A DNA stretch of 64,000 nt from Heterodontus francisci (lineage: Eukaryota), in assembly GCF_036365525.1 (NCBI RefSeq), contig NC_090399.1, forward strand, positions 15,313,558 to 15,377,557, read 5' to 3'. Every line of letters starts with the position of its first letter. Position 1 is the first letter of the stretch. The position numbers and the translations under genes are program-made. Below, piece after piece: positions 4,561-56,430 of this stretch. Below the pieces are notes generated by a model. The model was given only the letters and a program-made list of their open reading frames with translations, searched no databases and was not told where the DNA came from.

Positions 4561-5730
4561 TCCTTTGTAATATCGTTTCCTTTGTAAAAACAAAACCCCT
4601 CTCAGTCGAGCAAACCGTCAGCACTGGCGGAGCAGGTGTGGATGAGACAATCATGATGATGCATACCATCTGGCACACCAGAGGAATTTAAATCTTGCAA
4701 CAATCCCGTTGAAGCATTAGAAAACAGCAACTGCCTCCACACTGTTAACGTTGAATTATTGAAGCGATCAAGTCATTCAGGCTCCAACCACGGACCGCAG
4801 CGGAGATATAGATCGATTTACTAATGAGCAACTCGCAAGGAAATTATCAGGTCAAAATTCTGTTTAAAATCAGTTTAGTAACCATGGCGCAGATCATTTC
4901 GTTGACCGGATAATCTATTTGGAATTTAGATTAAACATTTGGGCAAACCAGAGTTAATCAGTAAAGATTCGTGCTGTTCCTGTGTTTTTAAGATGTTTAT
5001 ACCCACAATAGGATGTTTTGAGCACTCTCAGAGGCCTGGTTTTCGGTACAAGTCAATCCTATTTTGAAAGGAGGATATTCAACAGAACTTTAAAGTGCAG
5101 CTTGTGTTTAGACTTTTCACACAGAAGGTAATTGTTAAGTAACTACGCTGTTACTATGGTTGGGGTGGGGTGGGTGATTTAACCTGGCTTTGGAAGCACT
5201 GTCGGAATATTTCACAGGTTTACTCTTTCTAGCGAAATTTCAAAATCTCTCTGGAATAATGCAGTAAATCAGAAAAATTATCAGAGGATAATTTTGGCTC
5301 TCTGTCTACCACGTGGCGCAAAGACCGGTAGAATTATCTCCCTATACTTTTGTTAGGTAAGGGTCGAAATTAATTCTACAGGATGCTTCATATGTGGGTA
5401 TCGTAACATACTTTATATGTTAATGCCAGTTCCTCTTTCTGTTTTTCTTTCAACTGCATTACCTCTTCTGCTAAAACAGGGGGACGAGTAGTTTGGTCCG
5501 AGCGCGTTAAGTGTTCCTGTCATAATATGACAGACTGTAATTACCACGCTGTAATACCTTAAGTTTGACAGATGCAAATTTAATATTCAAAATAAACAAA
5601 GTAGATGTGACCAATTCCTTCCAAATAATACTTGAACACTGCCGAAAACCATGCACCGCTAGATTCTTATTCAACAGGGTTCCATGCCCTCAAGTTCATT
5701 ATCATCCAATCGTCATATTTGTATTCTTAC

Positions 5731-16873: not shown

Positions 16874-16934
16874 ATGGCGATAGAACGGTGGACAACAACC
16901 TCTGTTTTCCTTCTGATTTCAATCTTTCTAGCGG
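16874..16934 (+). CDS. NKp30/NCR3-like receptor, coding exon 1 (signal peptide MAIERWTTTSVFLLISIFLA)
   Basis: ATG in good context (CCAATGG), 20 codons with a hydrophobic core, phase-1 donor G|GTAAGT matching the V exon phase. An upstream ACTAAC branch point and CAG acceptor (16864) hint at a 5' non-coding exon. Confidence 0.8.
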
Positions 16935-17719
16935 GTAAGTGAATTGTCCCAATTTTATTGTTTAAATATTATAAGAAAACCATGATCATTAATCAGACTA
17001 AATGAATGATTGCAAGTATTTTTTTTTAAATACTAGAGATGCATGGCTTAACAAGTTCCTATATTGTCTATAGCGGTGGCATAAATCAATACCAGTTGCA
17101 ACATTAGTTTTAATGTTTTTGTAATTATCCCCAAATGAGTACATTTTGTAATGCTTTTAGGCACGAAAGTGATTAATTCACCATAGACGCATCTTCTTAA
17201 CGGCATTTCACTTGTTGTTCCTGCTTTTCCCCAAATGCCTGCTTTGCTTCGTTACCGATATGGAACTAGAGTAAACAATTGCTAGGCATGTTTGTTAGCA
17301 GGTTTGTTATTTCTGGAAATGAAGGAGTGCATCCAACGTAGTAACAGCAGGAGGAGACTGCCGGTTCATTTAGCCCAGCTAGCCATAATATTCCCTTAGT
17401 GCGTTTCTGATATTCCTGAATCTTAATTGTTGACAAGAAATTTATAGGTCTTCTTGAAACCTATTAAGTTTTCTTGTTCCACCACCTCTACGACTAACCA
17501 GTTCCACGTCTTTAGCACTCATAATAAATAACGTCCTCCCTCATTTCCTATTTTCTTCTGCTATTTTTAATTTGTAAATATGCTAAAATCCTGTAACTGA
17601 CAGACAAGCTTACTTGGGTTCGATTTGTCCAATTCTTTTATAATTTTAAATAGTTCCATCAGATCTTGTTCAGATATTCTTATCAAAAAATCCTAATATC
17701 ATCAATCTTTTTTCCAGAA

Positions 17720-18170
17720 ATTTGAAAAAAAAATACAAAAACAGTTCAAATTTTACATTTCTGAAAGTGCAATAGAGATCAGATTCCTTCGATACAGAGT
17801 GTCTCACAATTCTTGCCATTCCATTTTATATGCAAAGTACATTTGCATTACACAGCATAAACATTTTGGTGCATACAGCACTTTGGGTTTTACATAGGTT
17901 CCAGCCCCTCAGTATATTATGGCGGGAGAGCCTTACACAGTGGCCTTTCCCCATTGAGCCTTAGCGGCAGTTGCCCAAGCTTTAGTGCATCCCTCAGCAC
18001 GTAATCTTGGACCTTGGAATGTGCCAGTCTGTAGCACTCGGTCGTGGACAACTCTTTGCACTGGAAGACCAGCAAGTTTCAGGCAGACCAAAGTGCGCCT
18101 TTCACCCAGTTGATGGTCCTCCAGCAACAGTTGACGTTTATCTCGGTGTGCGTTCCTGGGAACAGCCCAA
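17720..18170 (-). mobile_element. Tx1-like LINE 3' end, nested in an old CR1 fragment (~17340-18320)
   Basis: ORF2 end AKAQWGKATV* plus a 3' UTR homologous to 54510-54775. Confidence 0.75.
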
Positions 18171-20213
18171 GATCATCAATATTTCCTCACAAGTCATTCC
18201 CTTAAGTTCAGGGGTCAACCATGCACCCCTTCTGTGTACCTCTTGAAATTACTGAAATAGCCTTTTTGATACAGTGAACAAAGACAGCACTCCGGATATG
18301 GTCTCACCAGGACTAAATATATCATTAAAATTATCACTCCAGATTTATTTAATTTACTTCTCGCAATGCAACCAAACAGATGCATACTTTACACAAATGA
18401 TTGATGTAAATGATTCCATTAACCACACACTACAGAGCCATACATTTCCTAATAATCTCTTAATCCAACCTTGAATTTAGCATCGAGATATGTTTTAACT
18501 CAGGATTTGCAGAGCACTACCGGTAATAATATCCCGTTATATCCAACTTCAGACGTCTGGTAGTAACAGTTCAAATCAACATTGGACTCCAAATGCGCTG
18601 GTATTTTTGGAATTAACATTCGGTGCCATTATGCAACTGTATTAATATATTTGCAAAATCAGCCAATACAATCACTGAATTACTTTGCCCAAAACATCTG
18701 CAGCCACATGTACCAAATTTAAGCATAATAACTATAACACTCTATTGTTGCTCCTGGAAGAATGGTTTTACTGGTGTTAGAAATATTGTGGACACATATT
18801 TCGGGTAGCGATCAGATTTATATGTCTTGCTTGTTAGTTGAATACTACTGTTCATAATATTTGCTCAATGATGCCACATACACCTGAAAATCTATCATTT
18901 CTATGCCTCAACCTTATTGAACTTAAATGAATAAATCATCCTCGGGAATTCGTGGAAAACTAATGATGAGGTTTTTTATGTATGAGATCATTACAATAAA
19001 TATATTTTACTCACATCCAATATATCTCAACATAGCTATATTTTGTTTTGAGGTGAGCAGCTAAAGGAAATAATCACGCCATTAAGTACGGTTGGGATAC
19101 GAGATAATAATCTTCACATCAAGGAAGTAAACGGGATTGATTTATTTATTGGCATGGTGTTAAAAAGTTGATCCTCGATTGAAGTCCGCAGTATGCAGAA
19201 AACCTGGTATAACATTAATGTTTACAAGAGCGAAGTGTGCATGGCTTCAATATTTGAACAGAGGTTCGAACAGGTTCACAAACTCATCATAATGACCATA
19301 TTTTCATTGACAAATTCTTTTTCTGATGGTTGTTTGGTAAATAAAACTCGATAATTATTGTCGAACAGGTCCCTTAATTAACACGGGTCAATGTTTTAAT
19401 TTCCATGAATTTAAGATATATACAGTGTTCTGTGATCTACTGCGCATCTTACAGCTTATTTTTGAATTTGGGCAACGAGCTAATATGGAATACCAGCATG
19501 CCCATCATATTCCGCCCCTATACATTCCTCCATATGGAAATCAGACACCTGTAGATTACTATGTAAGGATAAAAAGTGTATTGCATTGATCTGTTACTTG
19601 ATAATACTATTAATGAATCAATAAGGAATGCATCATTTACTTTCTTCCTCTCCATCTTTCTTTCGTTCCTTTGCATTCGTTTTTCTTTCTATCGTTCATT
19701 CTTTGTGTCTTTCTCTAGTTCTTTCTCTCCTCCTTTCTTTCTTTCTAGCATTCATATAATAATTTCCTTTGGAATTAATAATAGCATACTATGGAATTAA
19801 AACAACTCAAGCCATCTCAAAGCTCTTCGTGGCCAATGAATAAGAAGTGAACAGTAGTCTTTGTTGCTTTCTAGGACAACTCACCAATGACTTTGCTCAC
19901 AGCCCGGTTCTACAAACATCAATGAGATGAATAGCTCATAATATATTTTTGTGCTGTTTTCTGAAGGCTAAATTTTGACTACCGCACCGGGAGAACTTTC
20001 TCTACTTTGGAGGGGGCGGGGGGGGGGGGGGGGTGGGTGTGGGGTGAGGGTGAGAAACGCTCTCTCAGTTGCTGCATTAAAGTGTCAAATCCACGCTTAG
20101 AAGCAACAACCAGGCGATGCTGCGACAACTAAGCCAAATAGTTCTGGTTCACGGTGATGCATCAACCATTTACAGTGGCTAATTAATGCTTGTGTTTCTT
20201 TCTGCACCACTAG

Positions 20214-20540
20214 ATAACGAGGCTGCTACTTCCCAAATAATACAAAGGCCCATTTCAGTTCGTGTGTTCCAAGGTGATAGTGTGATTTTGAATTGCACCT
20301 TTCGTTTGGAAGGATTGGGCACCTACAGCTGGAGAAGAGATAATAGTGTCATAGACTTTGAATCTCCGAAATACAAGAAAAGAGTAATAAAAGCCGACTA
20401 TAATGCGTTCAAATTGAGACGAGATGCATCCATCCAAATTAATAATATGACAGAATGCGACTCTGGCATATATTACTGCGAGATTGATATAATGGGCAAG
20501 CAGAAGCTTGTCGGTAATGGAAGCTCGGTTATCGTACAGC
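20214..20540 (+). CDS. NKp30/NCR3-like receptor, exon 2: VJ-type IgV domain
   Basis: Acceptor CACTAG, donor C|GTAAGG, phase 1-1. IQRP..V..GDSVILNC...GTYSW...DASIQINNMTECDSGIYYCEIDIMG...GNGSSVIV has the canonical C-W-C, DxGxYxC and an in-exon J-like GxG. Resembles NKp30 (IYVCRVEVLG..GNGTRLVV). Confidence 0.95.
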
Positions 20541-20887
20541 GTAAGGAAACCTAACATTGTAACTTGAAAGCATTGTGATATTGTTTCCTGATTTAAACCT
20601 TCCCTTCATCCTTTCCTTCATGCTGTTGTTGTGCAGCTCTCCCTCTGTCTCCACCTCTGTCTTTCTGCCCACGGGCGGTGAATGTCTATTTCTGTCCCCC
20701 ACCACCCCCCCCCCACCCCGCCCCACCCCACTCCCCCATACCCCCCACACCCCCCCCCCCCCCCCCCCCACCTCCCACACCCTCATGTCTATCTTGTTTG
20801 TATTTCTTTGCGTTTCTCACTGTGTCCCTGTCTCTCTATCCATTTCTGGACTTATAAATAAATAACATTTTTTATTTCTTTTTGCAG

Positions 20888-21019
20888 ATTCTTGTGACAA
20901 ACCAAACCGTTCAAGTCTTCAGTTTGAGTGGTTGTGGATTGCAGTAGCAGGTGGTGTCACGTTGCTGGTTACTCTGCCACTCCTTGTTGTGATAATAGTC
21001 CTTGCTCAAAGAAACAAAG
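20888..21019 (+). CDS. NKp30/NCR3-like receptor, exon 3: stalk + transmembrane
   Basis: Acceptor TTTTTGCAG, donor G|GTATTT, phase 1-1. HSCDKPNRSSLQFEWLWIAVAGGVTLLVTLPLLVVIIVLAQRNK. Confidence 0.92.
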
Positions 21020-21204
21020 GTATTTTAAATACTAAAAGTGGTCGCCATGCTATGGAATCGTCAGAATTTCTATCTCATGCCTCAGAATGACAAAAAAAAT
21101 TATAATACAATGCAATTTTCTTTTTTGCAATTTTGTGGTTAACTTTTAACACATTTTTCATTTTGCGATGAATTAGAGTCTATATGATCCGGATGATTTT
21201 TACA

Positions 21205-21725
21205 CTTGGAGTATGTAAGCAGTTCTGGTCTCCACATTATTTAAACAAAAGATATAGAGGCGCTGGAGAAAGGGCAAAAAAGATTTGCTAAGATGATACC
21301 AAAACAGAGATGCCTGTCAGGAAAGATTGAAGAGACAGGAGCTCTTTTTTGTAGTAAAGAGAAGACTGAGGGGTGGCACGATCTTTATGATTATGTAGAC
21401 TTAAAGAAGGTATTTCCATTTACGAGAAAGACCAGAACTAGGAGCCAAGAATATAAAATCGTCAGTAATAAACTCAAGAGTGAATTCAGTAGAAACCTCT
21501 TTACCCGGAGAGTGGTTAGAATGTCGAACTATTACCACAAAGCGTAGTTGAGGTGACTAGAATAGATACATTTAAGGGGAAGTTAGGTAAGCAAATGGGG
21601 GAGAAAGTAATCGAAAAACATATTGATGAGGTTAGATGAAAAAGGGTTCGAGGAGGCCGGTGTGGAGGACAAACAACGGCCTTGACCTGTTGAGTCGAAC
21701 AACCTGTTTCTATGCTGTAACTACT
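21205..21725 (+). mobile_element. CR1 3' fragment (intronic)
   Basis: FWSPH..KDIEALE, RNLFTRRVVRM and a CR1 tail. Confidence 0.8.
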
Positions 21726-22088
21726 CCGCAACTTTTCAAAGGCACCTTTCATTTTTCAGGGAATTAAGGATAACAATTACGCTTGTCTTGATAATATGAC
21801 TTGTCATCCACTTCCCAAATATAGGGAAAGTTAATGTAAATCGGGAGACATTAAAAACAGTAAACGAAAATATATTAGGAACACCAAATATTGTTATTAA
21901 AATCCTAATGTTAAGTCACAATTTATATGAATAAACACATTTAAAGTAATTGCACTTCAGCGGATATACAAGTACATTTAGAGGATCTTCATAATTTTGA
22001 GATATGATGTTATTGAAGTGCTGCTTTAATCGACAATATCAACAACAATATTAACCACAACTATATTTCACCATTTTCTTATTCACAG

Positions 22089-22107
22089 CTTATGCGTTGC
22101 TTGTCAG
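22089..22107 (+). CDS. NKp30/NCR3-like receptor, exon 4 (19-nt micro-exon, AYALLV)
   Basis: Acceptor TTCACAG, donor AG|GTGAGT. Phase 1-2 fits both neighbours. Confidence 0.8.
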
Positions 22108-22223
22108 GTGAGTCAATCAATAGTTTCCTTGTAATCATGGAATGATTTATTCTAAAAGATTGTACACGACAAAAAAAATTACAGTCAGGTAACACTTTTG
22201 CTAAACATCTTCTTGTTTTGCAG

Positions 22224-22258
22224 AGAATGTTCTTCTTTCGATTCTGCAAAAGAACCAG
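22224..22258 (+). CDS. NKp30/NCR3-like receptor, exon 5 (35 nt, RECSSFDSAKEP)
   Basis: Acceptor GTTTTGCAG, donor CAG|GTAAGT, phase 2-1. Confidence 0.8.
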
Positions 22259-23779
22259 GTAAGTGATTCATATCTTTATTTTGCTCACTCGAGAGACTGT
22301 GGGCTGCTTGCATTACGATGAAGAATTCGTGGATGTGGTGTGTGTGCGCTGGCATTGTTTCAATTTAACAGCTTCTGATGCCTCTGGGTTAGAAAGCTCC
22401 AGCGTAAATGGAACCTGCTATTATTTGAAAAACTAAAGTTTTGTATGCATAATTTTATGCAAATATAAACCCATCTTGGACCACCAATTGTCATTCGTAA
22501 GAGAGGTATTCATGTGCTACAAATTTCTCCTTCCTCGGAGCAGCAAGAAATATTCATGACGTCCTTTAAATCTGAAAAGAAATAACTCTCCACACGGGTT
22601 CGAATTTAATCAGATATCAACTAAATTTTTGAAACTTTAAGAAGCTGTTTTTCAATGATTGGTCCCCTGAAAAGATTCAATAGCAATGCTTTGTTTCACC
22701 ATATCAGTCACTGAGGAAAAGTAGACGTATTTCGGAGATTTTCTTTCATGATCAGTTATGGCGTTAGATTTCAAAAGTCTTTAGTTCTCGTAAACACAGT
22801 CCCTCCAATTGCCATAAAATACCAAGTTATTTTAAGATGTCAGTCTCACTCGAACTCGCTTCGAATTTTCCTCAGCATAGTTGTAACTATTTGGAGCCAT
22901 CCAGCACAACAACAGATTCAAACGTACCCACTAAAGAAATTTTAAAACTGAAAATGTTTGAATTGTACCTTTGTATTTTTCCAAAGCTGTGTTTACCTTT
23001 TACAGACAAAAAGCTGTGCATTTGAGAAGTGGTATAGTATAAATTACAGTCAAAATAAATCTGTACTGCACGCCTTTAACTCAAAAGATTACAACCAAAC
23101 AGTTCTTAGGAAAGCACAGAGGTTTTCTTAAATCTCTCATTCCTTTGCGGGAACAAACTTTAGTTAAAAAGAGCATGCAGTAATTGTAACAACAACATTC
23201 ACGCTCTCATAACAACTCCAGATATCTTAAACACATTCAGTCATTCAAATCTTATTTCCTCTCACCCACTTTAAAATGTGAATTCCTTGTTATGGTCTGA
23301 TCAACTTAAAATTTCCAAATTCTATGCACAATCCCAGCCGTACGCACAAGGATGTCAACATGGGTTAAATAGGAGCAATAGAACATAAGGATTATGAGCA
23401 GGAGTGGACCATACGGCTTCTCGAGCCTGTTCCACTATTCAGTGCAATCATTGACGATCTTCCACCTCAATTCCACTTTCCCTTTAAATAATTAGCATTT
23501 TGTAGGTGCCAGCCGCAAAAAAAAAAACCAGCATTCATAATTTGTTAATTTGATCAGTCTCTCTAACCCTTGGCCTGCCGCGTTAGGAAGCTGTCAGTTG
23601 CAATTGAACCAGTATGACCCATAATCATCCATTCATTGTCAATGCGTCATCTCAATCTGAGCGTTCTCTTCGAATGGATCATTTACTCTATTTTCACTTA
23701 TCTGGTTGCAAAAGTGAACCACCTGGCATAATAAATGCCTCGCAACTCTTAAGTTCCTCTTTTTCTGATTTTCTTTCTT

Positions 23780-24460
23780 CTTTCTTTTGGGCCTCCTTAT
23801 CTCGAGAGACAATGGATAAGCGCCTGGAGGTGGTCAGTGGTGTGTGAAGCAGCGCCTGGAGTGGCTTAAAGGCCAATTCTAGAGCGACAGGCTCTTCCAC
23901 AGGTGCTGCAGAGAAATTTGTTTGTCGGGGCAGTTGCACAGTTGGCTCTCCCCTTGCACCTCTGTCTTTTTTCCTGCCAACTACTTAGTCTCTTCGATTC
24001 GCCACATTTTAGCCCTGTCTTTATGGCTGCCCGCCAGCTCTGGCGAACGCTGGCAACTGACTCCCACGACTTGTGATCAATGTCACAGGATTTCATGTCG
24101 CGTTTGCAGACGTCTTTAAAGCGGAGACGTGGACGGCCGGTGGGTCTGATACCAGTGGTGAGCTCGCTGTACAATGTGTCTTTGGGGATCCTGCCATCTT
24201 CCATGCGGCTCACATGGCCAAGCTATCTCAAGCGCCGCTGACTCAGTAGTGTGTACAAGCTGGGGATGTTGGCCGCCTCGAGGACTTCTGTGTTGGAGAT
24301 ACGGTCCTGCCACCTGATGCCAAGTATTCTCCAGAGGCAGCGAAGATGGAATGAATTGAGACGTCGCTCTTGGCTGGCATACGTTGTCCAGGCCTCGCTG
24401 CCATAGAGCAAGGTACTGAGGACACAGGCCTGATACACTCGGACTTTTGTGTTCCGTGTC
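23780..24460 (-). mobile_element. RTE-clade LINE 3' fragment (intronic)
   Basis: YQACVLSTLLYGSEAWT...FHLRCLWRILGIRWQDRISNTEVL, RIPKDTLYSEL..G.RPTGRP, C-terminal CxxC. Confidence 0.92.
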
Positions 24461-24834
24461 AGTGATTTCTGATTTACCAACCCCTTTTCATGGGTCATCA
24501 CCGTCACCTGCGACTTGTCTCTTTTGAACATTACGGTGGCCAACAGCTCACTAACTGCTCTGTCAATTAGTTTCTTTTGAAGGGTTTCCCTGACAGTCAC
24601 CATGGTTAATTCAACGATTGGAGACAGTACCCCCAACGGTTTCCTAACCAATTGAAATTCGGTTTTGTACAAGTCTAGACTGTCATAAGTACTTGGTATC
24701 ACAAAAACAAGATTACTGCTAGTCAGATCCTTCCCCGTTCGTCAATTGCAAGACAGGTTGACTCTGACAAACTAAATGTGATGGCAACATCATACTGTTA
24801 TTGTGATCGACCAAATCGAGACACTTGTGATGTA

Positions 24835-25625
24835 GGAACATAGGAACAGGAGTAGGCAATTCAACTCTTCAAGCCTGTCCCGCCATTCAATGAGATCGTG
24901 GATGATCCACAGCCTAACTCCATATACCTGCCTTTGGCCCATATCCTTTAATATCTTTGCTTAACAAAAATCTATCTATCTCAGATTTAAAATTAACAAC
25001 TGTTCTAGCTTCAACTACTGTTTGTGGGAGAGAGTTCCAAAGCTCTACCACCCTTTGCTTGAAGAAGTACTTCCTAACATCTCTCCTGAATGGTCTGGTC
25101 CTAATTTTTAGACTATGCCCCCTAGTTTTAGAATCTCCAACCAGTGGAAATAGTTTATCTTTATCTAGCCTGTCTTTTCCTGTTAATATCTTGAAGACTT
25201 CAATCAGATCATCCTTAACCTTCTAAATTCGAGCGAAAACAGGCCTAATTTGTGTAATCTCTCCTCATAACTTAACCCCTGTAGTCCATGTATCATTCTT
25301 GTCAAGCTACGTTGTACTCCCTCCAAGGCCAATATATCCTTGCTGAGGTGTGGTGCCCAGAACTGCTCACAGTACTCCAAGTGGGGTCTAACCTGGGTTT
25401 TGTACAGCTGCAGCATAACCTCTGTGTCTTTATACTCCAACCCTCTAGATGTAAGGGCTAGCATTCCATTAGCTTTATTGGTTATTTTCTGCACTTGCTC
25501 GTGGCATTTTAAAGATCTATGCACCTGAACCCCCAATTCTCCTTGGACATCCACTGTACTTAACCTCTTCCCATTTAGAAAGTATCATGCTCTATCCTTT
25601 TTTTGGTCCCAAATGGATAACCTCA
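24835..25625 (-). mobile_element. CR1 3' fragment (intronic)
   Basis: ORF 25204-25554 [13 protein letters not shown]...GLFSLEFRRLR. Confidence 0.92.
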
Positions 25626-25989
25626 AGTCTTTAACTAGTAGGCATGCAGAGAAATAAACAATATTAGTCCTTTTTTCTCTGGGTGGAGACGTAAACTTCA
25701 TGAATTATTTTGATCTTGACCGGCTCTATAAACTGTTGAGAAAGCTCAAAATCTTTATAGGTCTCTAGTCAGACACAGTCTTTGCTAATTCATTACAGCA
25801 TGACAATTGCAATTGTGAAGAAGATCCTCAGAAATGAGAGAGTCCCTACAAAAGACTAGATGCCAGCTTGTTCATCATCCTGGCTTATTGTCCCACTTCC
25901 TATCTCAAGACTGTCTTGGCTATCTACTTTAACAATGTGGCAACAAAAAGAATAAAGCAAAATAGCAATAATTAGTTTGTAAAGTTAAA

Positions 25990-26630
25990 GTATGGAAGGG
26001 CAGCTTGGCCGAGTGGAATGTGCCTCCTGTGGTATGTGAGAACTTGTAAACGCACCATGTGTCCTTGATAAACACATCTGCAGGAAGTGTCACCGCATCT
26101 GCAAGGCAGAGAACTACGTGGATAGTACGTTTAGGGAAGTGGCCTCACCACAAGTTAAAAATGTGCAGACAGAAAAGGAATGGGTGGCTGCTAGACAGTG
26201 TAAGAGAACCAGGCAGGTAGTGCAGGAGTCCCCTGAGTCCATCACGCTTGCTAACCAATATCCATTTTGAATACTGGTGAGGGCAATGGTTCCTCAGAGG
26301 AGTGCACCAGAGCCAAGTCTGTGGCACCACGGGTGGCTCAGCTGCACAGGAGAGAAGGAAGAAGAGTGGAAGGACAATAGTGATAGGGGATTCATTAGTT
26401 AGAGGAACAGACAGGCGTTTCTAAGGCCGCAGACGTGACACCAGCATGGTATGTTGCCTCCCCGGTGCCTGGGTCAAGGATGTCACAGAGCGGCTGCAGG
26501 ATATTCTTCTGGAGGAGGGTGAACAGCCAGAGGTCGTGGTCCACATTGGTACCAACGACATGGGTAAGAAGAGGGATTAGCTCCTGAAAGCAGACTTTAA
26601 GGAGTTAGGAAAGAAGTTAAAAAGCAGACA
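25990..26630 (+). mobile_element. CR1 ORF1 (SGNH esterase-like) fragment
   Basis: IVIGDSLVRG, CCLPGA.VKDV, VVVHIGTND. Confidence 0.88.
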
Positions 26631-26787
26631 GCATAACTGAAATGTTACCTGCCAGAAACTTGTCTATAAATGCACCCCAAGGAAAGATTTCGAGAATGGA
26701 GTTATTAATCACCCAAAAAAATCAGAATTTTTAAAGGACTTTTCCGAAACAGTCCATTAACTGTATTCCTGTTTTCCCCCCAAATAG

Positions 26788-26831
26788 AGTTGTCAAACAG
26801 AAACAAAGCGCAAAATCATGCCACACACCAG
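26788..26831 (+). CDS. NKp30/NCR3-like receptor, exon 6 (44 nt, ELSNRNKAQNHATHQ)
   Basis: Pyrimidine tract plus ATAG acceptor, donor CAG|GTAAAT, phase 1-0, open frame. Confidence 0.7.
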
Positions 26832-27544
26832 GTAAATGCACGTTTGTCTATGTAGTTGCATGAGTTGTGTTTGTAACGTGTAAAACTATTGCATAGGCAC
26901 GTTTTTGTGTCATTGTATTGATTACATGAAAATGCTTATCAAAAAATGCGTCATGCAATGCCTTTGGAATAACGATGATTTGAAATGCAGAAATATCTGA
27001 ACAACATGTGATAAAGCAAAATGCCGATACATGTTTTTAATTGAAGTAAAAGGAAGAACATGCGAGAAACACAAAGGAAATTGAACCCGAAAGCAATTTC
27101 AGGTGGTTCACCTCTCTAACTCTTCCAAATTTCCAGTCGTCATGTCTTTTCTTTGAATTTCTACATTTTTATCTATTCTGAGCTTTCATGATGGGTCTGT
27201 ACTTCAGACAAAGGGGGCAATGTTAACTTTGAATGGGTAATAGCGAATGTTATAACTCGTTATACACCTCGTCCGATTGTCTTTTCAATTCGAAACAACA
27301 CTCTGAATATTTCACTATTTTGAGACATGATTTTCATAATTTCAGCAAAAGCTTCTGTGTACGAAAATCGAAAAGGTCACTGTTGAATCATGCGTGTTTT
27401 TTTTAATGTATATAGACAGATAAGTTAAGTGGAACAATGTGACCTACAATCTCCAGCAGCCAAGGCTTCACAACTTATTTCATCATCTTACTTTTAACCA
27501 CAAGATGTAATTATATAGCTCCTTTCATGTAAACCTGCCAGTAC

Positions 27545-27945
27545 GGGTGGTGGTGCGAGGCCGTGGGGGAGTTGAAAATGAAGATGAGAAATTTAAAATT
27601 CGAGGCGTAGCTGTACCGGAATCCAAATTACGTCAGTGAACACAGGGATGATGGGTGGATGGAACTTGGTTCGAATTAGGATATGGGCAGCAGAGTTTTG
27701 GATGAGCCCAGGTTTCCAAAGGGTGCAAGGCGGGAGGCTGACCAGGAGAACATTGGAATAGTGGAGTCTTGAGTTAACAAATGCATGGATGAGGGTTTCA
27801 GCAGCAGAGAGGCTGAGGTGGGGGCGGATATTGGAAATGTGATTCAGGTGAAAGTAGGAGGTCTTGGTGATGCTGAAGAGATATGGCCAGAAGCTTAACT
27901 CAGGGGAAAATAGGTTACTAAGATGGTGAACAGCCTGGTTCAGCC
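27545..27945 (-). mobile_element. L2 LINE RT C-terminal fragment
   Basis: YFHLNHISNIRPHLS..AETLIHAFVNSRL.Y.N...IQNSAA. Confidence 0.85.
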
Positions 27946-28460
27946 ACATAGAATGTACAACACAGCAACAAACTGTTCAGCCCAACTAGTCTATGCCGGT
28001 GTTAATGATCCATCGGAGCCATACTGCTCATCTATCAGCATAACATTTAATTTCTTTCTCTGTCATTTACTTATCTAGATTTCCCTTAAATGTACCTGCG
28101 ATATTCGCTTCAAATCTGTATGTGGTAATTCTATGTTCTTCCACTCTCTCGGTATAGACGTTTCTCCTGAATTCCTATTTATTAACAACTATTTTGCATT
28201 TATAGTTCCTAATAGTAGACGCCCCACAAATGGAAACATCTTCCTACATCTCCCCTATCGAATTCTTTCATAATTTAAAGCTCTGTTAGGTTACCTCTCA
28301 GCCTTCTGTTTTTCAGCAAAAAAGAGCCCCAGCCTGATCGGTCTTTCCTGATAGTCAAAACCTTTCATTTCTGATATCATCCTCGTAATTCTTTGCAATA
28401 TTTTCTCCAGTGCTTCTATTTCATTTTTGCAATATGCAGACCAGACCCGTGCACCAAATG
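27945..28460 (-). mobile_element. old CR1 3' fragment
   Basis: Degenerate CR1 3' region, similar to the reverse complement of 21205-21725. Confidence 0.65.
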
Positions 28461-29898
28461 GGCGCTTTTAAACCACCATGAAGTGTACGTTAACCTGGTA
28501 ACATCCATAGGTGTATGTAGATTGAGTTTAACTGCCGTGCTGCTCTTGTTACGTGACTCCGCTGTGAAAGCTTTTGCTGTTAAACTGAAAATTTCTAATT
28601 GTTCACAATTGTAATGGACTATCGAGAGAACTTTCAGAAACCCCGCTATTTTATCGCGTCCTAAACATTCCCCAGGCAGTCTGAAATTAAAAACAAACTA
28701 AAAATAAAAATGTCGAAAATCACGACAGGTAGCAAAATTGAAAACTAAGTTTAAAAAGTTAATAGCATTGATACTGAAAAGTGTCAGCAAAAAGATTTAT
28801 TTCAGCCTTTCATCCCACAGTCTTTGCAACTGTTCTACAATGGAGACGAATAGACGTCCATTGCTAAGCGATTTTCATCCGTCTTAGATGGCAAATAGTG
28901 CGGTACCTTATTTCGATTAATTTCACTTTTTTGATGCAGTTCCCCAAAGTTCTCCTATGAAAACTCTTTAAGTTGGACTAAAATGGCAAGAAAAAGTTTG
29001 AGCAGCGCATGAATCAGTGATCCCACCAGAAGACTTCCCGTCCATTTTGTGGCCTTAGCTCGCAAATTGGGCACTAAATCCTGTCCCAAAATACGGAATA
29101 ACGCTTCTAGAGACAGCGGTGTGTTTCTTAATCTGACCCATTAATTGTATGGGGTTTGCTTCGCGACCATGGATGATACACGCATTAGCATGTTGAGCAG
29201 TGACTTCTTTTTGGTTGAATAGCAGCTGATCGACAGTGTGGGCTTAAGCTGGAATCGCTAGTTTTATGTTTGGCAATGCACAGAGGGTAAATCCCAGTGG
29301 AGAGAATTTTGCTTTTCAAAGTGCACAGGAAGTTGTTTGGAGATCTTTGGCACGTTCTTCCCAAGATAGCGAGGCCTTATCTAAATGTTTTCGAAATAAG
29401 GATTGTTCCTCGGAGCTTTCTACATAGAGAAACTCTGTGCACGGATATGGCTGAGACCTGTAAATACAGTGTAATTGTATCTCGGCAATGTAACCTAGCA
29501 TTACGTTAATATGAATCTTTTTTTTCTGCCTGATGTCGCTCCAGTGTGAAGCCTTTTTCCTCATTTTATTCATACTAACACCGTTCCTATGAACTTAAGC
29601 GTCTTCTTTAACTCCATATTTGTTCTACGCCTACTCTCGACGTCCTCGCTCTACAAACATCCATGGGCACCGTCCCCATGGCAACTCATGTGTCAAAAAA
29701 ACTGTTAAAATTCTACGCTTGCCTTACAAAAGACTAACTTTGCACAGCATAATTTCAGGCTGGTACACCTTAAGACTGCTTCTGAAAGGACGCAATAGTT
29801 ACGACAAAGCTCTTGCTGTATAAAATTAAATGGGTGAAAAAACGTTTTCTTTATATCGTGGTGCTAACCAATGTAATGTTTGTGTCCTTGCTTCAAAG

Positions 29899-29985
29899 CA
29901 TGAAGATGCTTACCTTCACTGTCACGTTAATGAACCCAAGGCCAAGAAAAAACGTCCACTACCGGCAAGAAGGAACATGCAGTAG
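29899..29985 (+). CDS. NKp30/NCR3-like receptor, terminal exon 7 (HEDAYLHCHVNEPKAKKKRPLPARRNMQ*)
   Basis: Branch-like GCTAAC and a pyrimidine tract before an AAG acceptor; phase 0 matches exon 6. Followed by AT-rich sequence with AATAAA at 30302 and 31742. Confidence 0.65.
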   Translation, partial: HEDAYLHCHVNEPKAKKKRPLPARRNMQ

Positions 29986-30774
29986 ACCTCATTCAGTACC
30001 GCATTATTATTATCTTATATCCATTTCACCACCCGGTTTTATCAGAACAAATGTAAGATAAAAATAATCTGATTTCAATTTTTCGTATTTGTGTGGTAAC
30101 CAGTTTTTGAAAATTGATGTACATGTTGTATGAAGCTTTAATTATGTGGCACTGCTTGTTTTTCAGTTAAAACCCACTCCTCTCTTTGAATTTGCTGTTA
30201 CCAATTGATGGCCTATTGTCAGGAATAATTAAATATAATTCCTATGCAATGAAACGGTGCATTCCACTGAAATGTTTTCCAATAACCAAATATCAGAAGA
30301 AAATAAACTTGTACAGATTTTCTTTTGGTTCTAGCTTTTGTCACTTCTATTTTATCGATACCACGGCTTTCATTGTTTCTATGAGTTTCTCTTGTTACTG
30401 TCATACTACAAGGTCTACGCTTTCTTCCTCCTCCCTGTACCGTCATCATTTTCAAACATAGGCCAATGATCTAATGTGCAGTTTGAAATTATTCTTCCCC
30501 ATGGCCTTAGAACTGCGAGGCTTCCCGTTTCTGTCCGTCCACCCAACTTCCCACAGGCCTATAAAACGGAAGCTTGCCACCAATTAAACACTTCACTTGA
30601 TTCTGTTCAATCTTTGTCTTTTGTGCTGTGGGTTTCAGCCCTACACCTAGGCTTCCCAATAATAGAAGTAACCCTTGCTCTGCGTGTATTATGCTGTACA
30701 ATTGCTTGTTGGAGGTGGCATAGGAGACAATATTCACAGGTCGGTGTCCAAGGGCTTGCACTCCTGATATACGA

Positions 30775-30955
30775 ACGTACGAATTAGGAGCAGGAGTAGG
30801 CCACTTGACCCCTCGAGCCTGCTCCGCCATTCAATAGGTTCAAGGCTGAACTGATTACTCCACATTTCCACCTACCCCCACCCACCCCCCCCCCCCCCCC
30901 GATAACCTTCCACTCCCTTGCTTATCAAGAATCTATCTACCTCTGCCTTAAAAAT
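30775..30955 (-). mobile_element. CR1 3' tail fragment
   Basis: GAATTAGGAGCAGGAGTAGGCCA...CCCCTCGAGCCTGCTCCGCCATTCAAT read on the + strand. Confidence 0.75.
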
Positions 30956-35019: not shown

Positions 35020-38000
35020 TTTTAAAATTCTTTCATGGGATGTGGGCTTCGCTGGCCAGGCCAGCATTTATTGCCCATCCCTAATTGCCCTTGAGAAGGT
35101 GGTGGTGAGCTGCCTTCTTAAACCGTTGCAGTCCATGTGGGGTAGGTACACCCACAGTGCTGTTAGGGAGTTCCAGGATTTTGACCCAGCGACAGTGAAG
35201 GAACGCCGATATAGTTCCAAGTCAGGATGATGTGTGACTTGGAGGGGAACTTGTAGGTGGTGGTGTTCCCATGTATGTGCTGCCCTTGTCCTTCCAGTTG
35301 GTAGAAGTCGCGGGTTTGGAAGGTGCTGTCTGAGGAGCCTTGGTGCATTGCTGCAGTGCATCTTGTAGATGGTACACACTGCTGCCACTGTGCGTCGGTG
35401 GTGGAGGGAGTGAATGTTTGAAGATGGGGTGCCACTCAAGTGGGCTGCTTTGTCCTGGATGGTGTCGAGCTTCTTGAGTGTTGTTGGAGCTGCACCCATC
35501 CAGGCAAGTGGAGAGTATTTCCTCACACTCCTGACCTGTGCCTTGGAGATGGTGGACATGCTTTGGGGAGTCAGGAGGTGCGTTACTCGTCTCAGGATTC
35601 CTAGTCTCTGACCTGCTGTTGTAGCCACGGTATTTATATGGCTACTCCAGTTCAGTTTCTGGTCAATTGTAGCCCCTAGGATGTTGATAGTGGGGGATTC
35701 AGCGATGGTAATGCCGTTGAATGTCATGGGGAGAGGGTTAGATTCTCTCTTGTTGGAGATGGTCATTGCCTGGCACTTCTGTGGCGCGAATGCTACTTGC
35801 CACTTATCAGCCCAAGCCTGGATATTGTCCAGGTCTTGCTGCATTTCTACACAGACTGCTTCAGTATCTGAGGTATCACGAATGGTGCTGAACATTGTGC
35901 AATCATCAGCTAACATCCCCACTTCTGACATTATGATTGAAGGAAGGTCATTGATGAAGCAACTGAAGTTGGTTGGGCCCAGGACACCACCCTGAGGAAC
36001 TCCTGCAGTGATGTCCTGGAGTTCAGATGATTGACCTCCAACAACCACAACCATCTTCCTTTATGCTAGGTATGACTCCAAACAGCGGAGGGTTTCCCCC
36101 TGATTCCCATTGACCTCACTTTTGCTTGGGCTCCTTGATGCCATACTCGGTCGAATGCTGCCTTGATGTCAAGCGCAGTCACTCTCACCTCACCTCTTGA
36201 GTTCAGCTCTTTTGTCCATGTTTGAACCAAGGCTGTAATGAGGTCAGGAGCTGAGTGGCCCTGGCGGAACCCAAACTGAGTGTCACTGAGCAGGTTGTTG
36301 CGAAGCAAGTGCCGCTTGATGGCACTGTTGATGACACTTTCCATCACTTTACTGATGATTGAGAGGAGGCTAATGGGGAGGTAGTTGGCCGGGTTGGATT
36401 TTTCCTGCTTTTTGTGTACAGGCCATACCTGGGCAATTTTCCACATTGCAGGGTAGATGCCAGTGTTGTAGCTGTACTGGAACAGCTTGGCTAGGGGCGC
36501 GGCAAGTTATGGAGCACAGGTTTTCAGTACTATTGCCGGAATATTGTCAGGGCCCATAGCTTTTGCAGTATCCAGTGCCTTCAGTCGTTTCTTAATATCA
36601 TGTGGAGTGAATCGAATTGGCTGAAGTCTGGCATCTGTGATGCTGAGGACTTCAGGAGGAGGCCGAGATGGATCATCAACTCAGCACTTCTGGCTGAAGA
36701 TTGTTGCAAATGCTTCAGCCTTATCTTTCGCACTGATGTGCTGGGCTCCCCCATCATTGAGGATGGGGATATTTGTGGAGCCACCTCCTCCAGTTAGTTG
36801 TTTAATTGTCCACCACCATTCACGGCTGGATGTGGCAGGACTGCAGAGCTTGGATCTGATCCGTTGGTTATTGGATCGCTTAGCTCTGTCTATCGCATGC
36901 AGCTTACACAGTTTGGCATGCAAGTAGTCCTGGGTTTTAGCTTCACCAGGTTGAAACCTCATTTTGAGGTATGCCTGGTGCTGCTCCTGGCATGCCCTCC
37001 TGCACTCTTCATTGAACCAGGGCTGGTCTCCTGACTTGATGGTCATGGTAGAGTGGGGGATATGCCGAGCCATGAGGTTACAGATTGTGGTTGAGTACAA
37101 TTCTGCTGCTGCTGATGGCCCACAGCGCCTCATGGATGCCCAGTTTTGCATTGCTAGATCTGTTCGAAATCTATCCCATTCAGCACGGTGATAGTGCCAC
37201 ACAACACGATGGATGGTATTCTCAATGTGAAGGCGGGACTTCGTCTCCACAAGGACTGTGCGGTGGTCACTCCTACCAATACTGTCATGGACAGATGCAT
37301 CTGCAGCAGGCAGATTGGTGAGGACGAGGTCGAGTATGTTCTTCCCTCGTGTTGGTTCTTCCCCCACCACCTGCCACAGGCCCAGTCTAGCAGCCATGTC
37401 CTTTAGGACTCGGCCAGCTCGGTCAGTAGTGGTGCTACTGAGCCACTCTTGGTGATGGACATTGAAGTCCCCCACCCAGAGTACATTTTGCGCCCCTGCC
37501 ACCCTCAGCACTTCCTCCAAGTGGTTTTCAACATGGATGAGTACTGAGTCATCAGCTGAGGGAGGGCAGTAGGTGGTAATCAGTAGGAGGTTACCTTGCC
37601 CATGTTTGACCTGATGCCATGAGACTTCATGGGGTCCGGAGTCGATGTTGAGGACTCCCATGGCAACTCCCTCCCTACTGTATACCACTGTGCCACCACC
37701 TCTGCTGGGTCTGTCCTGCCGGTGGGACAGGACGCACCCGGGGATGGTGATGGTTGTGTCTGGGACATTGTCTGTAAGGTATGATTCCATGAGTATGACT
37801 ATGTCAGGCTGTTGCTTCACTAGTCTGTGGGACAGCTCTCCCAACTTTGGCACAAGCCCCCAGATGTTAATAAGGAGGACTTTGCAGGGTCGACAGGGCT
37901 GGGTTTGCCGTTGTCGTTTCCGGTGCCTAGGTCGATGCCGGGTGGTCCATCCAGGTTCATTCCTTTTTTTAGACTTGGTAGCGGTTAGATACAACTGCGT

Positions 38001-38306
38001 GGCTTGCTAGGCCATTTCAGAGGGCATGTAAGAGTTAAGCACATTGCTGTGGGTCTGGAGTCACATGTAGGCCAGACCAGGTAAGGACAGCAGATTTCCT
38101 TCCCTGAAGGACATTAGTGGACCAGATGGGTTTTTACAACATTCGACAATGGTTTCATGGCCATCATTAGACTAGTTTTAATTCCAGATTTATTAATTCA
38201 AATTCCACATTCTGCTGTGGAGGGATTCAAACCCATGTCCCCAGAGGAATACCCTGGGTCTCTGGGTTATTAGTCCAGTGATAATACCACTACGCCACCG
38301 ACTACC
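35020..38306 (-). mobile_element. near full-length LINE family B: tRNA-like head + 5' UTR + single APE-RT ORF (disrupted)
   Basis: ORF pieces 37994-36681 (APE: NIWGL, ILMESYL, GDFN, LDLVLTN, SDH), 36446-36066 (PISLL, QFGFR, LDIKAAFD) and 36054-35068 (GVPQG, LADD). Box A at 38297-38286 and box B at 38233-38223. Confidence 0.9.
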
Positions 38307-38472
38307 CTCCCTTAGTGCAAATTAAAAAGTGCAGAGAACAATCTAAAATAATGTGCATGTATTCTAGTACACTTCAGATCATCTATTTCAGAACATCTAT
38401 TTCAGAACGATACTCAGCCTTTTCAGAACCTCCAAATTTCCAACTCGAAGGACATTTATGCCTTTAGATATA

Positions 38473-41400
38473 AGAACAAAGAAAAAAGAACAAAGAACAA
38501 AGAAAATTACAGCACAGGAACAGGCCCTTCGGCCCTCCAAGCCTGCGCCGATCCAGATCCTCTAGCTAAACATGTCGCCTGTTTTCTAAGGGTCTGTATC
38601 TCTTTGCTTCCTGCCCATTCATGTATCTGTCTAGATACATCTTAAAAGACGCTATCGTGCCCGTGTCTACCACCTCCGCTGGCAACGCATTCCAGGCACC
38701 CACCACCCTCTGCGTAAAGAACTTTCCACGCATATCCCCCCTAAACTTTTCCCCTCTAACTTTGAACTCGTGACCCCGAGTAATTGAATCCCCCACTCTG
38801 GGAAAAAGCTTCTTGCTATCCACCCTGTCTATACCTCTCATGATTTTGTACACCTCAATCAGGTCCCCCCTCAACCTCCGTCTTTCTAATGAAAATAATC
38901 CTAATCTACTCAACCTCTCTTCATAGCTAGCGCCCTCCATACCAGGCAACATCCTGGTGAACCTCCTCTGCACCCTCTCCAAAAGCATCTACATCCTTTT
39001 GGTAATGTGGCGACCAGAACTGCACGCAGTATTCCAAATGTGGCTGAACCAAAGTCCTATACAACTGTAACATGACCTGACAACTCTTGTACTCAATACC
39101 CTGTCCGATGAAGGAAAGCATGCCGTATGCCTTCTTCACCACTCTATTGACCTGCGTTGCCACCTTCAGGGAACAATGGACCTGAACACCCAAATCTCTC
39201 TGTACATCAATTTTCCCCAGGACTCTTCCATTTACTGTATAATTCACTCTTGAATTGGATCTTGCAAAATGCATCACCTCGCATTTGCCCTGATTGAACT
39301 CCATCTGCCATTTCTCTGCCCAACTCTCCAATCTATCTATATTCTGCTGTATTCTCTGACAGTCCCCTTCACTATCTGCTACTCCACCAATCTTAGTGTC
39401 GTCTGCAAACTTGCTAATCAGACCACCTATACTTTCCTCCAAATCATTTATGTATATCACAAACAACAGTGGTCCCAGCACGGATCCCTGTGGAACACCA
39501 CTGGTCACACGTTTCCATTTTGAGAAACTCCCTTCCACTACTACTCTCTGTCTCCTGTTGCCCAGCCAGCTCTTTATCCATCGATCTAGTACACCCTGGA
39601 CCCCATGCGACTTCACTTTTTCCATCAGCCTACCATGGGGAAACTTATCAAACGCCTTACTGAAGACCATGTATATGACATCTACAGCCCTTCCCTCATC
39701 AATCAATTTGTCACTTCCTCAAAGAATTCTATAAAGTTGGCAAGACATGACCTTCCCTGCACAAAACCATGTTGCCTATCACTGATAAGCTCATTTTCTT
39801 CCAAATGGGAATAGATCCTATCCCTCAGTATCTTCTCCAGCAGCTTCCCTACCACTGACGTCAGGCTCACCGGTCTATAATTACCAGGATTTTCCCTGCT
39901 ACCCTTCTTAAACTAGGGGACAACATTAGCAATTCTCCAGTCCTCCGGGACCTCACCTGTGTTTAAGGATGCTGCAAAGCTATCTGTTAAGGCCCCAGCT
40001 ATTTCCTCTCTCACTTCCCTCAGTAACCTAGGATAGATCCCATCCGGACCTGGGGACCTGTCCACCTTAATGCCTTTTGGAATACCCAACACTTCCTCCC
40101 TCCTTATGCCGACTTGACCTAGAGTAATCAAACATCTGTCCCTAACCTCAACATCCGTCATGTCCCTCTCCTAAGTGAATACCGATGCAAAGTACTCGTT
40201 TAAAATCTCACCCATTTTCTCTGACTCCACGCATAACTTTCCTCCTTTGTCCTTGAGTGGGCCAATCCTTTCTCTAGTTACTCTCTTGCTCCTTATATAT
40301 GAATAAAAGGCTTTGGGATTTTCCTTAATCCTGTTTGCTAAAGATATTTCATGACCCCATTTAGCCCTCTTAATTCCTCATTTCAGATTGATCCTACATT
40401 CCCGATACTCTTTCAAAGCTTCGTCTTTCTTCAGCCTCCTAGACCTTATGTATGCTTCCTTTTTCCTCTTTGCTAGTCTCACAATTTCACCTGTCATCCA
40501 TGGTTCCCTAATCTTGCCATTTCTATCCCTCATTTTCACAGGAACATGTCTCTCCTGCACGCTAATCAACCTCTCTTTAAAAGCCTCCCACATGTCAAAT
40601 GTGGATTTACCTTCAAAGAGCTGCTCCCAATCTACATTCCCCAGCTGCTGCCGAATTTTGGTATAGATAGCCTTCCCCCAATTTAGCACTCTTCCTTTAG
40701 GATCACTCTCGTCTTTGTCCATGAGTATTCTAAAACTTACGGAATTGTGATCACTATTCCCAAAGTAGTCCCCTACTGAAACTTCAACCACCTGGCCGGG
40801 CTCATTCGCCAACATCAGGTCCAGTATGGCCCCTTCCCGAATTGGACTATTTACATACTGCTCTAGAAAACCCTCCTGGATGCTCCTTACAAATTCTGCT
40901 CCATCTAGACCTCTAACACTAAGTGAATCCCAGTCAATGTTGGGAAATTTAAAATCTCCTATCACCACCACCCTGTTGCTCCTACATCTTTCCATAATCT
41001 GTTTACATATTTGTACCTCTATCTCACGCTCGCTGTTGGGAGGCCTGTAGTACAGCCCCAACATTGTTACCACACCCTTCCTATTTCTGAGTTCTGCCCA
41101 TATTGCCTCACTGCTCGAGTCCTCCATAGTGCCCTCCTTCAGCACAGCTGTGATATCCTCTTTGACCAGTAATGCAACTCCTCCACCCCTTTTACCTCCC
41201 TCTCTATCCCGCCTGAAGCATCGATATCCTGGGATGTTTAGTTGCCAATCAGGCCCTTCCCTCAACCAAGTCTCAGTAATAGCAATAACATCATACTCCC
41301 AGGTACTAATCCAAGCCCTAAGTTCATCTGCCTTACCTACTACACTTCTTGCATTAAAACAAATGCACCTCAGACCACCAGTCCCTTTGCTTTCATCATC

Positions 41401-42790
41401 TGCTCCCTTCCTGCTCTTTCCCTTAGTCACGCAGACTTCATTATCTAGTTCCTTACAGGCTTTAGTTACTACCTCCTTACTGTCTACTGACCTCCTCATT
41501 TTGTTCCCATCCCCCTGCCACATTAGTTTAAATCCTCCCCAACAGCGTTGGCAAAAGCACCCCCAAGGACATTGGTTCCAGTCCGGCCCAGGTGTAGACC
41601 GTCCAATTTGTAATAGTCCCACCTCCCCCAGAACCGGTCCCAATGTCCCAAAAATCTGAACCCCTCCCTCCTGCACCATCTCTCAAGCCACGCATTCATC
41701 CTGACTATTCTTTCATTTCTACTCTGACTATCACGTGGCACTGGTAGCAATCCTGAGATTACTACCTCTGAGGTCCTACTTTTTAACTTGGCTCCTAACT
41801 CCCTAAATTCTGCTTGTAGGACCTCATCCCGTTTTTTACCTATATCATTGGTGCCTATGTGCACAACGACAACTGGCTGTTCACCCTCCCCCTTCAGAAT
41901 GTTCTGCAGCCGATCTGAGACATCCCTGACCGGTGCTCCTGGGAGGCAACATACCATTTGGGAGTCTCGTTTTCGACCACAGAACCGCCTATATACTCCC
42001 CTTACAATCGAATCCCCTATCACTATAGCCCTTCCACTCTTTTTCCCGCCCTTCAGAACAGCAGAGCCAGCCACGGTGCCATGAACCTGGCTACTGCTGC
42101 CTTCCCCTGGTGAGCCATCTCCCTCAACAGTATCCAAAACGGTATACCTGTTTTGGAGGGAGATGACCGCAGGGGACACCTGCGCTGCCTTCCTGCTCTT
42201 TCTCTGCCTTTTGGTCACCCATTCCCTTTCTCCCTCAGCAATCCTAATCTGCGGTGTGACCAATTCGCTAAACGTGCTATCCACGACGTCCTCAGCATCG
42301 CGGATGCTCCAAAGAGAGTCCATCCGCAGCTCCAGAGCCGTCATGTGGTCTAACAAGAGCTGCAGCTGGACACACTTCCTGCACGTGAAGGAGTCAGGGA
42401 CATCAGCCGTGTCCCTGAGCTCCCACATTGAGCAAGATGAGCAGAACACGGGTCTGAGATCTCCTGCCATTTTTAATCTTAAGCTTAACTTAGATAAATG
42501 AAAAAGGGACGACAAGTGTTTACCAATCTCACGATAAAAAAAAAGAGAAATAGAAAAAGCCTTACCTTATCTACACACCACCGAGTCCTTTTTTTTGGTT
42601 AGAGGAGGACGGCGGGTGGGAGACACTACAGGTGTAGTGTCTCGGGTTCAGAAGCAGCCCAAATATATAGGTTTTTACTTACCCAGCAGCCCCCTGGTCC
42701 GCCGAAAACAAAAGGAAAATTAAGTTTAAGTTGAAACTGACCTTCCCAGCTGATCACTCGCTCAGCACTCTCTGCTTCCGAATAAGCTGC
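38473..42790 (-). mobile_element. near full-length young CR1 LINE (ORF1 zinc finger + SGNH esterase; ORF2 APE-RT, lightly disrupted)
   Basis: ORF1 ATG 42470 to stop 41523 is intact (CxxC...CxxC, GDS, GTND, DGLH). ORF2 starts at an overlapping TAATG (41523) and runs in pieces to 38566. (GTTCTTT)n tail. Confidence 0.97.
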
Positions 42791-55644: not shown

Positions 55645-56430
55645 AGCTGGAGCCGCACTCATCCAGCCAAGTGGAGAGTATTCCATCACACTTCTGAATT
55701 ATGTCTTGGAGATGGTAGACAGGCTTTGGAGAGTCAGGAGGTGAGTTACTCGCCACAGAATTTCCAGCTTCTGACCTGCTCTTGCAGCCATTGTATTTTT
55801 ATGGCTACTCCAGTTCAGTTTCTGGTCAATGGTAATCGCCAGGATGTTGATAATGGGGGATTCAGCAATGGTAATACCATTGAATGCCATGGGAGATGGT
55901 TAGATTCTCTCTTGTTGGAGATGGTTATTGTCTGGCACTTTTGTGGTGCGAATGTTACTTGCCACTTATCAACCCAAGCCTGAATGTTGTCCATGTCTTG
56001 CTGCATGTGGACACGGACTGCTTCGATATCTGAGGATTTGTGAATGGTACTGAACACTGTGCAATCATCAGTGAGCATCCCCACTTCTGACCTTATGATG
56101 AAGGGAAGGTCATTAATGAAGCAGCTGAAGATGGTTGACCCTAGGACACCACCCGGAGGAACTCCTGCAGCCATGTCCTGGGACTGAGATGATTGGCATC
56201 CAACAACCACAACCATCTTCCTTTGCGCTAGGCATGACTCCAGCCTGTGGAGAGTTTTCCCCCTGATTCCCATTGACTTCAATTTTTCTGGGGCTCCTTG
56301 ATGCCATATTCGGTCAAATGCTGTCTTGATGTCAAGGGCAGTCACTCTCACTTCACCATTAGAATTCAGCTCTTTTGTTCATGTTTGGACCAAGTCTGTA
56401 ATGGGATCAGGAGCCGAATTGCCCTGGCGG
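55645..56430 (-). mobile_element. LINE family B RT fragment
   Basis: ORF 55815-56351 LDIKTAFDRIWH...MLTDD. Confidence 0.92.

Follow-up and report, generated by a model that had tools for sequence, protein, structure and literature searches.

The window analysed here is a 64,000-nucleotide stretch of the horn shark (Heterodontus francisci) genome (contig NC_090399.1, forward-strand positions 15,313,558 to 15,377,557), and its subject is a gene for a receptor resembling NKp30, the product of NCR3; positions within the gene are those of the window. Seven coding exons on the forward strand, all AG/GT-bounded and with compatible phases (1,1,1,2,1,0), join to encode a protein of 234 residues that is identical to the horn shark RefSeq entry XP_067865603.1 (NCR3-like). 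The preliminary description of the locus had proposed precisely this arrangement, and it is borne out by the exon join, by the RefSeq protein and by the exon joints found in assembled contigs.

The first exon of the 234-residue form (16874-16934) encodes the signal peptide, as seen in the exon join and the contigs. Exon 2 (20214-20540) encodes a single VJ-type immunoglobulin variable (V) domain, NKp30-like by domain match and structural model, with GxG in its G strand and an extra cysteine, Cys102. Exon 3 (20888-21019), placed by contigs and orthologue alignment, encodes a stalk with Cys132, an uncharged transmembrane segment (residues 144-169) and a QRNK stop-transfer sequence. The cytoplasmic tail is then assembled from four short coding segments supported by contigs: a 19-nt exon 4 (22089-22107) that provides AYALLV of the juxtamembrane segment, a 35-nt exon 5 (22224-22258) reading RECSSFDSAKEP, a 44-nt exon 6 (26788-26831) forming a linker that varies between orthologues and contains His202 and His205, and the 87-nt coding part of exon 7 (29899-29985), which reads EDAYLHCH followed by a basic stretch, RPLPARR and the stop codon, and which occurs as a single copy in the genome. 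All three tail motifs previously ascribed to these exons (YALL, EDAYLHC and KRPLP) are thus present. The contigs that carry the exons continue into a 3' untranslated region (29986-30802, possibly longer) with AATAAA at 30302.

RefSeq isoform X1 (P0005) has an optional upstream exon, to whose coding part of nine codons (4824-4850, forward strand) the N terminus of P0005 maps and which is predicted to splice to 16865, bringing that model to eight exons or more; on the exon 1 side the contigs match 72 letters, consistent with an acceptor at 16865 and a CAG common to both. Joints of the GT..AG type were found at five of the six introns in the contigs of all four sequencing runs. The joint between exons 4 and 5 was absent among the joints listed; one contig of 1534 nt contains exactly the 98 letters expected between exons 3 and 7. 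Spliced contigs therefore support five introns by their joints and the sixth by length, from runs that represent one sample, only guessed to be RNA, and that may be source data of the RefSeq model, in which case this support is not independent of RefSeq. When strong splice-site pairs were sought between 16.9 and 33 kb, five candidates came up: exons 3, 4 and 6, and exon 4 twice more in longer read-through form; the micro-exons were therefore not chosen from a large pool of look-alikes.

Since exon 3 is phase-symmetric (1-1), it can be skipped in frame, as in the Mobula RefSeq isoform P0171, a predicted soluble form; no joint that skips this exon was present among the contig joints listed for the horn shark.

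V domain, chromosomal setting and transmembrane segments

The V domain is recognised as a Pfam V-set domain, and NKp30 is its top single-domain match among solved structures (34 bits). A profile built from 19 horn shark V domains likewise gave NKp30 as the best single-domain match (80.8 bits, against 65.6 for SIRP-alpha), with no CD28-family chain among the 60 matches listed. In line with these sequence comparisons, an AlphaFold2 model of the domain (predicted local distance difference test, pLDDT, 90.6) has NKp30 at Foldseek ranks 1-4, at a structural identity of merely 22-24%, and includes a predicted NKp30-type alpha2 helix at model residues 62-68. Trees of V domains, computed on about 110 columns and on row sets to which human NCR3, CD28, TMIGD2 and CD7 did not belong, placed the gene with NCR3-like sequences when 63 rows (82/93) or 31 rows (91/88) were used and left the split between NCR3 and CD28 without resolution with 37 rows. 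In two of the three trees the paralogue L018 is its sister (92/89 and 89/83). The paralogues share 28-37% V-domain identity with the gene, and the names 'myelin protein zero-like 1' (white shark) and 'SIRP-beta2-like' (one paralogue) were taken as products of automatic annotation. The NKp30-like character of the V domain, as first described, is therefore supported by sequence, profile and Foldseek matches, and the gene is very probably a single-copy member of an expanded shark family of NCR3/NKp30-like receptors.

All 20 matches of the V domain in the genome lie on one contig, C29, in two clusters at 14.83-15.38 Mb and 31.0-31.96 Mb, and only the gene itself exceeds 38% identity; a bichir NCR3-like query gave 23 of 23 genome matches on the same contig. 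[quoted passage not shown] A CD28/CTLA4-like trio of V exons is found on C7 (131.43-131.79 Mb), and five of the seven matches to an EIPP pattern are CD28H-like V exons on C1 (42.56 and 265.94 Mb), C10 (a pair at 82.30 and 82.52 Mb) and C36 (37.26 Mb).

These locations bear on whether the gene belongs to the CD28 family, as the preliminary description had suggested. Like CD28, CTLA4, ICOS, CD28H (TMIGD2), CD28HL, CD28X and PD-1, as characterised in PMC11599192, it encodes a V domain, transmembrane segment and tail in that order, with GxG in the G strand, a stalk cysteine, an uncharged transmembrane segment and tail tyrosines. It differs from them, however, in having neither PPP nor EIP (its CDR3 loop reads CEIDIMGKQK), no YxxM or YxN, no transmembrane YxxxxT and no immunoreceptor tyrosine-based inhibition or switch motif (ITIM or ITSM), and in its location, the shark CD28-family genes being on other contigs. 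Judged by the definition that Quiniou et al. apply there, it is not a CD28-family member, and strict membership is not supported.

The transmembrane segment contains no Arg or Lys, as originally reported, and is uncharged in all 13 orthologues with a complete segment. This property is not, as had been implied, special to the gene. Transmembrane candidates were recovered from 14 of 18 fetched paralogue loci (at L013, L014, L015 and L030 there was no such exon within about 9 kb); five contain Arg or Lys, one of them as YIRAG, two contain Glu only and seven are uncharged, so that nine of the 14 resemble the gene in having neither Arg nor Lys, with the proviso that at L020 and L023 some 6 kb separate the candidate from the V exon, and it may be part of a different unit. 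The paralogue L016 (C29, 14.82-14.83 Mb; protein P0081) combines a transmembrane Arg with a tail containing an ITIM-like LEYSTI and further tyrosines, and thus shows mixed activating and inhibitory features.

Outside the horn shark cluster, two nurse shark NCR3 proteins in GenBank (QTT61898.1 and QTT61901.1) have uncharged transmembrane segments and tail tyrosines, one of them with a canonical ITIM, and share with the gene a single VJ-type V exon, location on the MHC chromosome and membership of a multigene cluster. These two, out of eight published subtypes (the nurse shark NCR3 genes MT914154-914161, cited in PMC12227049), were the ones compared; they are not orthologues, and the horn shark gene differs from them in its near-invariant juxtamembrane block and in having no ITIM-type distal exon. 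NCR3-like proteins of the horn shark (XP_067865381.1), lungfish (XP_043938374.1) and sterlet (XP_058852856.1) also combine an NKp30-like V domain and an uncharged transmembrane segment with a tyrosine-bearing tail of their own, but theirs contain canonical ITIMs, whereas the gene has none. Other sterlet and bichir NCR3-like proteins possess a transmembrane Arg and are nearly tail-less. The NCR3-like family is paired-receptor-like, and since uncharged members are already represented by the nurse shark proteins and many neighbours, this headline feature of the gene changes little.

Human NKp30 is the best solved match, and has in common with the gene the alpha2 helix (here predicted) and MHC linkage. 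It pairs through a transmembrane Arg with CD3zeta/FcRgamma, according to PMC6514059. The horn shark protein, in contrast, has no such Arg and has a 65-residue tail built from several exons. It is thus not an NKp30 of the mammalian type, and human NKp30 is a paralogue rather than a functional orthologue. The earlier suggestion of adaptor independence stands in so far as an uncharged segment excludes charge-mediated pairing with CD3zeta/FcRgamma; independence from pairing of any other kind is only presumed.

Several neighbouring genes and further features were seen alongside. In the chr34 table of Verissimo et al. (PMC10751288), the sawfish orthologue, LOC127586044, is listed, itself unlabelled, directly after three genes labelled NCR3, and in a Pristiophorus protein model (P0006) the orthologue is joined to a paralogue of the ITIM type, which suggests that the two adjoin there. 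Tandem V exons occur in the family: L022 (C29, 31.47-31.48 Mb) has three, and a gene to the right of the window (C29, 15378486-15379976) has two, with a candidate leader exon starting about 390 bases beyond the window end. The window also contains remains of long interspersed nuclear element (LINE) retrotransposons at 35068-42566 and 55815-56378 on the reverse strand and at 61527-63188 on the forward strand, with endonuclease and reverse transcriptase sequences and one open reading frame that includes a GDSL esterase domain.

Orthologues and the cytoplasmic tail

Eighteen homologues were found, from 15 named sharks and rays and one further record, of which 15 were aligned after an aberrant model (P0002) and two extra isoforms (P0172 and P0173) had been set aside. 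Beyond sharks and rays, two word-limited searches of proteins of 128-420 residues returned no orthologue, which is weak evidence of absence, and a search of the ESM Atlas with the transmembrane segment and tail gave no match reaching 0.9 (best 0.84).

Conservation is distributed very unevenly along the protein. Mean pairwise identity among the 15 aligned homologues is 0.545 in the V domain and 0.667 in the transmembrane segment, rises to 0.889 across residues 170-191, and is 0.485 in exon 6, 0.70 at residues 207-215 and 0.558 at residues 216-234. Tyr175 and Leu178 are conserved in 15 of 15, as are Ala174, Ala176, Val179, Arg180, Glu181, Ser184, Lys189 and Glu190. The cysteines outside this block follow a different pattern: stalk Cys132 is present in 13 of 15, the extra V-domain Cys102 in all seven shark rows and, in its place, a cysteine at position 65 in all eight ray-side rows, a swap that, judged from the alignment, possibly reflects a relocated intrachain disulfide with Cys132.

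The exons behind the conserved block have counterparts in the sister genes. A 19-nt and a 35-nt exon in L018 read ACIVLQR-QFVAYITEKST (identical at 9 of 19 and at 17 of 35 bases), and a 19-nt exon in L016 reads AIRRLK; no exons for the distal tail of L018 were recovered. The YALL exon is thus a juxtamembrane exon inherited within the family, at whose tyrosine position the sister genes have Cys, as in L018, or Ile. AlphaFold2 predicts, at low confidence, one helix from 139 to 185 that covers the transmembrane and juxtamembrane segments, followed by a disordered distal tail; within it Tyr175, Leu178, Cys182 and Phe185 have a 3-4-3 spacing, and L018 has matching Cys, Leu, Phe and Tyr.

The horn shark tail contains no YxxM, YxN, ITIM or PxxP; its only tyrosines are those of YALL and YLHC, and the transmembrane segment is Tyr-free. 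YxxL is a candidate internalisation or sorting signal motif, and ITIMs follow the consensus (S/I/V/L)xYxx(I/V/L), which neither KAYALL nor DAYLHC matches. The absence of MYPPPY and of a canonical ITIM had been correctly recognised at the outset. The proposal that the Tyr and Pro motifs work like those of CD28 is not upheld, given the missing motifs, the conservation of Tyr211 in only 11 of 14 rows (Leu, His or Phe in the other three) and the replacement of the YALL tyrosine in sister genes.

Proposed function and alternatives

Taken together, we favour, at a probability of roughly one in two, an elasmobranch-conserved receptor of the NCR3 family with an uncharged transmembrane segment, non-activating and modulatory, for which a B7-family ligand is predicted and which would act by way of its near-invariant juxtamembrane segment instead of CD28-type motifs. 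Its V domain would use the NKp30-type groove, from the FG strands to helix alpha2, for a B7H6-like ligand. Without a transmembrane Arg there would be no charge-based pairing with adaptors that bear immunoreceptor tyrosine-based activation motifs (ITAMs). Residues 170-190 would extend the transmembrane helix and offer a surface for docking or sorting, its YxxL being a candidate signal for internalisation, and the receptor would therefore compete with, or strip ligand from, the Arg/Lys-bearing paralogues of the cluster, raising their activation threshold. That the lack of charge-based pairing, the helical surface and the damping of charged paralogues all hold jointly is a tentative proposal, to which we give a little under even odds.

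A B7-family ligand, part of the original proposal, is upheld as plausible on the basis of the predicted alpha2 helix and of contact positions. Eleven NKp30 residues are tabulated as B7-H6 contacts by Li et al.; mapped by eye through a sterlet NCR3-like protein, three are identical (Gly51, Phe85 and Gly114) and four similar (Ile50, Ser52, Glu111 and Leu113), seven of 11 in all, and Phe86 is conserved in 15 of 15 orthologue rows.

A number of observations weigh against this interpretation. The remaining four contacts differ (Val53, Leu80, Ser82 and Leu86), Leu86 being replaced by Lys, and in human NKp30 the loss of a residue pair that includes Leu86 lowered B7-H6 binding 53-fold (Li et al.); Gly56 is variable in rays. 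As to family, VIA-align ties NKp30 with VNAR and T-cell receptor delta (Z 14.4-14.8), approximately unbiased (AU) tests on the 31-row set fail to reject a grouping with CD28-family V domains (p 0.17 and 0.20), leaving the separation of NCR3 from CD28 less than firm, and some 16.7 Mb separate the cluster from the closest class I match. As to the tail, the long helix is that of the best model among five (mean pLDDT 68.6, against 41-46 for the rest), where residues 171-180 have a pLDDT of 59; the hydrophobic moment reaches no more than a modest 0.45; Tyr175 is only six residues from the membrane; and since the whole of block 174-181 is nearly invariant, conservation does not mark out YxxL in particular as a sorting signal.

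The best-surviving alternative, which we nevertheless regard as unlikely, is that the conserved helix is an assembly surface for a homodimer, or for a heterodimer with a cluster paralogue or other signalling chain, and that the partner signals. The 3-4-3 positions matched in L018, the stalk Cys132 and transmembrane Gly151 (14 of 14 rows) would all suit such an assembly; Cys132 may, however, pair within the chain, as the alternation of Cys102 and Cys65 allows, and no candidate partner chain was identified. We also think it improbable that the protein is a co-stimulator like CD28 or TMIGD2 that recruits SH2 and SH3 proteins to phosphorylated tyrosines and a proline stretch in its tail. This reading can call upon the invariant Tyr175, the acidic residues that precede Tyr211 as at many kinase sites, Arg225 (14 of 14) and Pro226 (13 of 14), PxxPxR in two orthologues, the AU tests, and the fact that NKp30 is structurally counted within the CD28 family (PMC3135353 and PMC6514059). 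It has to contend with the absence of the CD28-family marks listed above from PMC11599192, with the inconstant Tyr211, with a proline stretch that varies among orthologues and has no PxxP in the horn shark, and with the presence of the shark CD28 trio and the five EIPP-type V genes on other contigs.

A further reading, which we consider doubtful, holds the gene to be an anciently fixed member of an otherwise fast-evolving NKp30 family, in which the near-invariant juxtamembrane helix and a His/Cys cluster would dock a cytoplasmic partner that is itself conserved and might be a zinc-clasped kinase; it would then serve shark natural killer or T cells as a co-receptor that is neither activating nor ITIM-based, signalling by a route not described for the family. 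There is little to recommend KAYALL as a non-canonical ITIM of a weak inhibitory receptor recruiting SHP-1/2: its YxxL is invariant, uncharged paralogues carry ITIMs and, according to PMC10768021, LAG-3 has ITIM-like motifs short of the full consensus, but there is Lys at -2, the lone motif lies very near the membrane, and the family's true ITIM exons (VQYSAL and VEYATI) are distal and missing from this gene. The least probable option is that His202, His205 and His213-Cys214-His215 bind zinc and clasp a Src-family kinase as the CD4 and CD8 tails do LCK, since, despite conserved ligands (His213 14 of 14, Cys214 13 of 14, His215 12 of 14, His or Cys at position 205 in 13 of 14) and although His can stand in for Cys in the CD4/CD8 clasps of fish and sharks (PMC10768021), the defining Cx(C/H) spacing is absent (Cys214-His215-Val216, with position 216 Cys in one of 13 rows, a row without Cys214, and never His), every ligand but His213 is lacking in one orthologue or another, some 45 residues separate the site from the membrane, and the idea was formed after the alignment had been inspected.

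Our literature searches found no paper on the gene, and the main work on the shark NCR3 family (Kinlein et al. 2021) may already cover the subtype; the supplements of PMC11599192 contain no KAYALL, white shark accession, Heterodontus, NCR3 or NKp30, and an elephant shark supplement has no NKp30, NCR3 or B7H6 text. The gene is a RefSeq-annotated member of a known shark NCR3 family, plus one conserved tail block worth testing. That a tail segment is more conserved than the ligand-binding domain marks it as a candidate site for binding a specific partner, and the gene is thus a good candidate for asking which modes of signalling the NKp30 family used before mammals reduced it to one activating gene.

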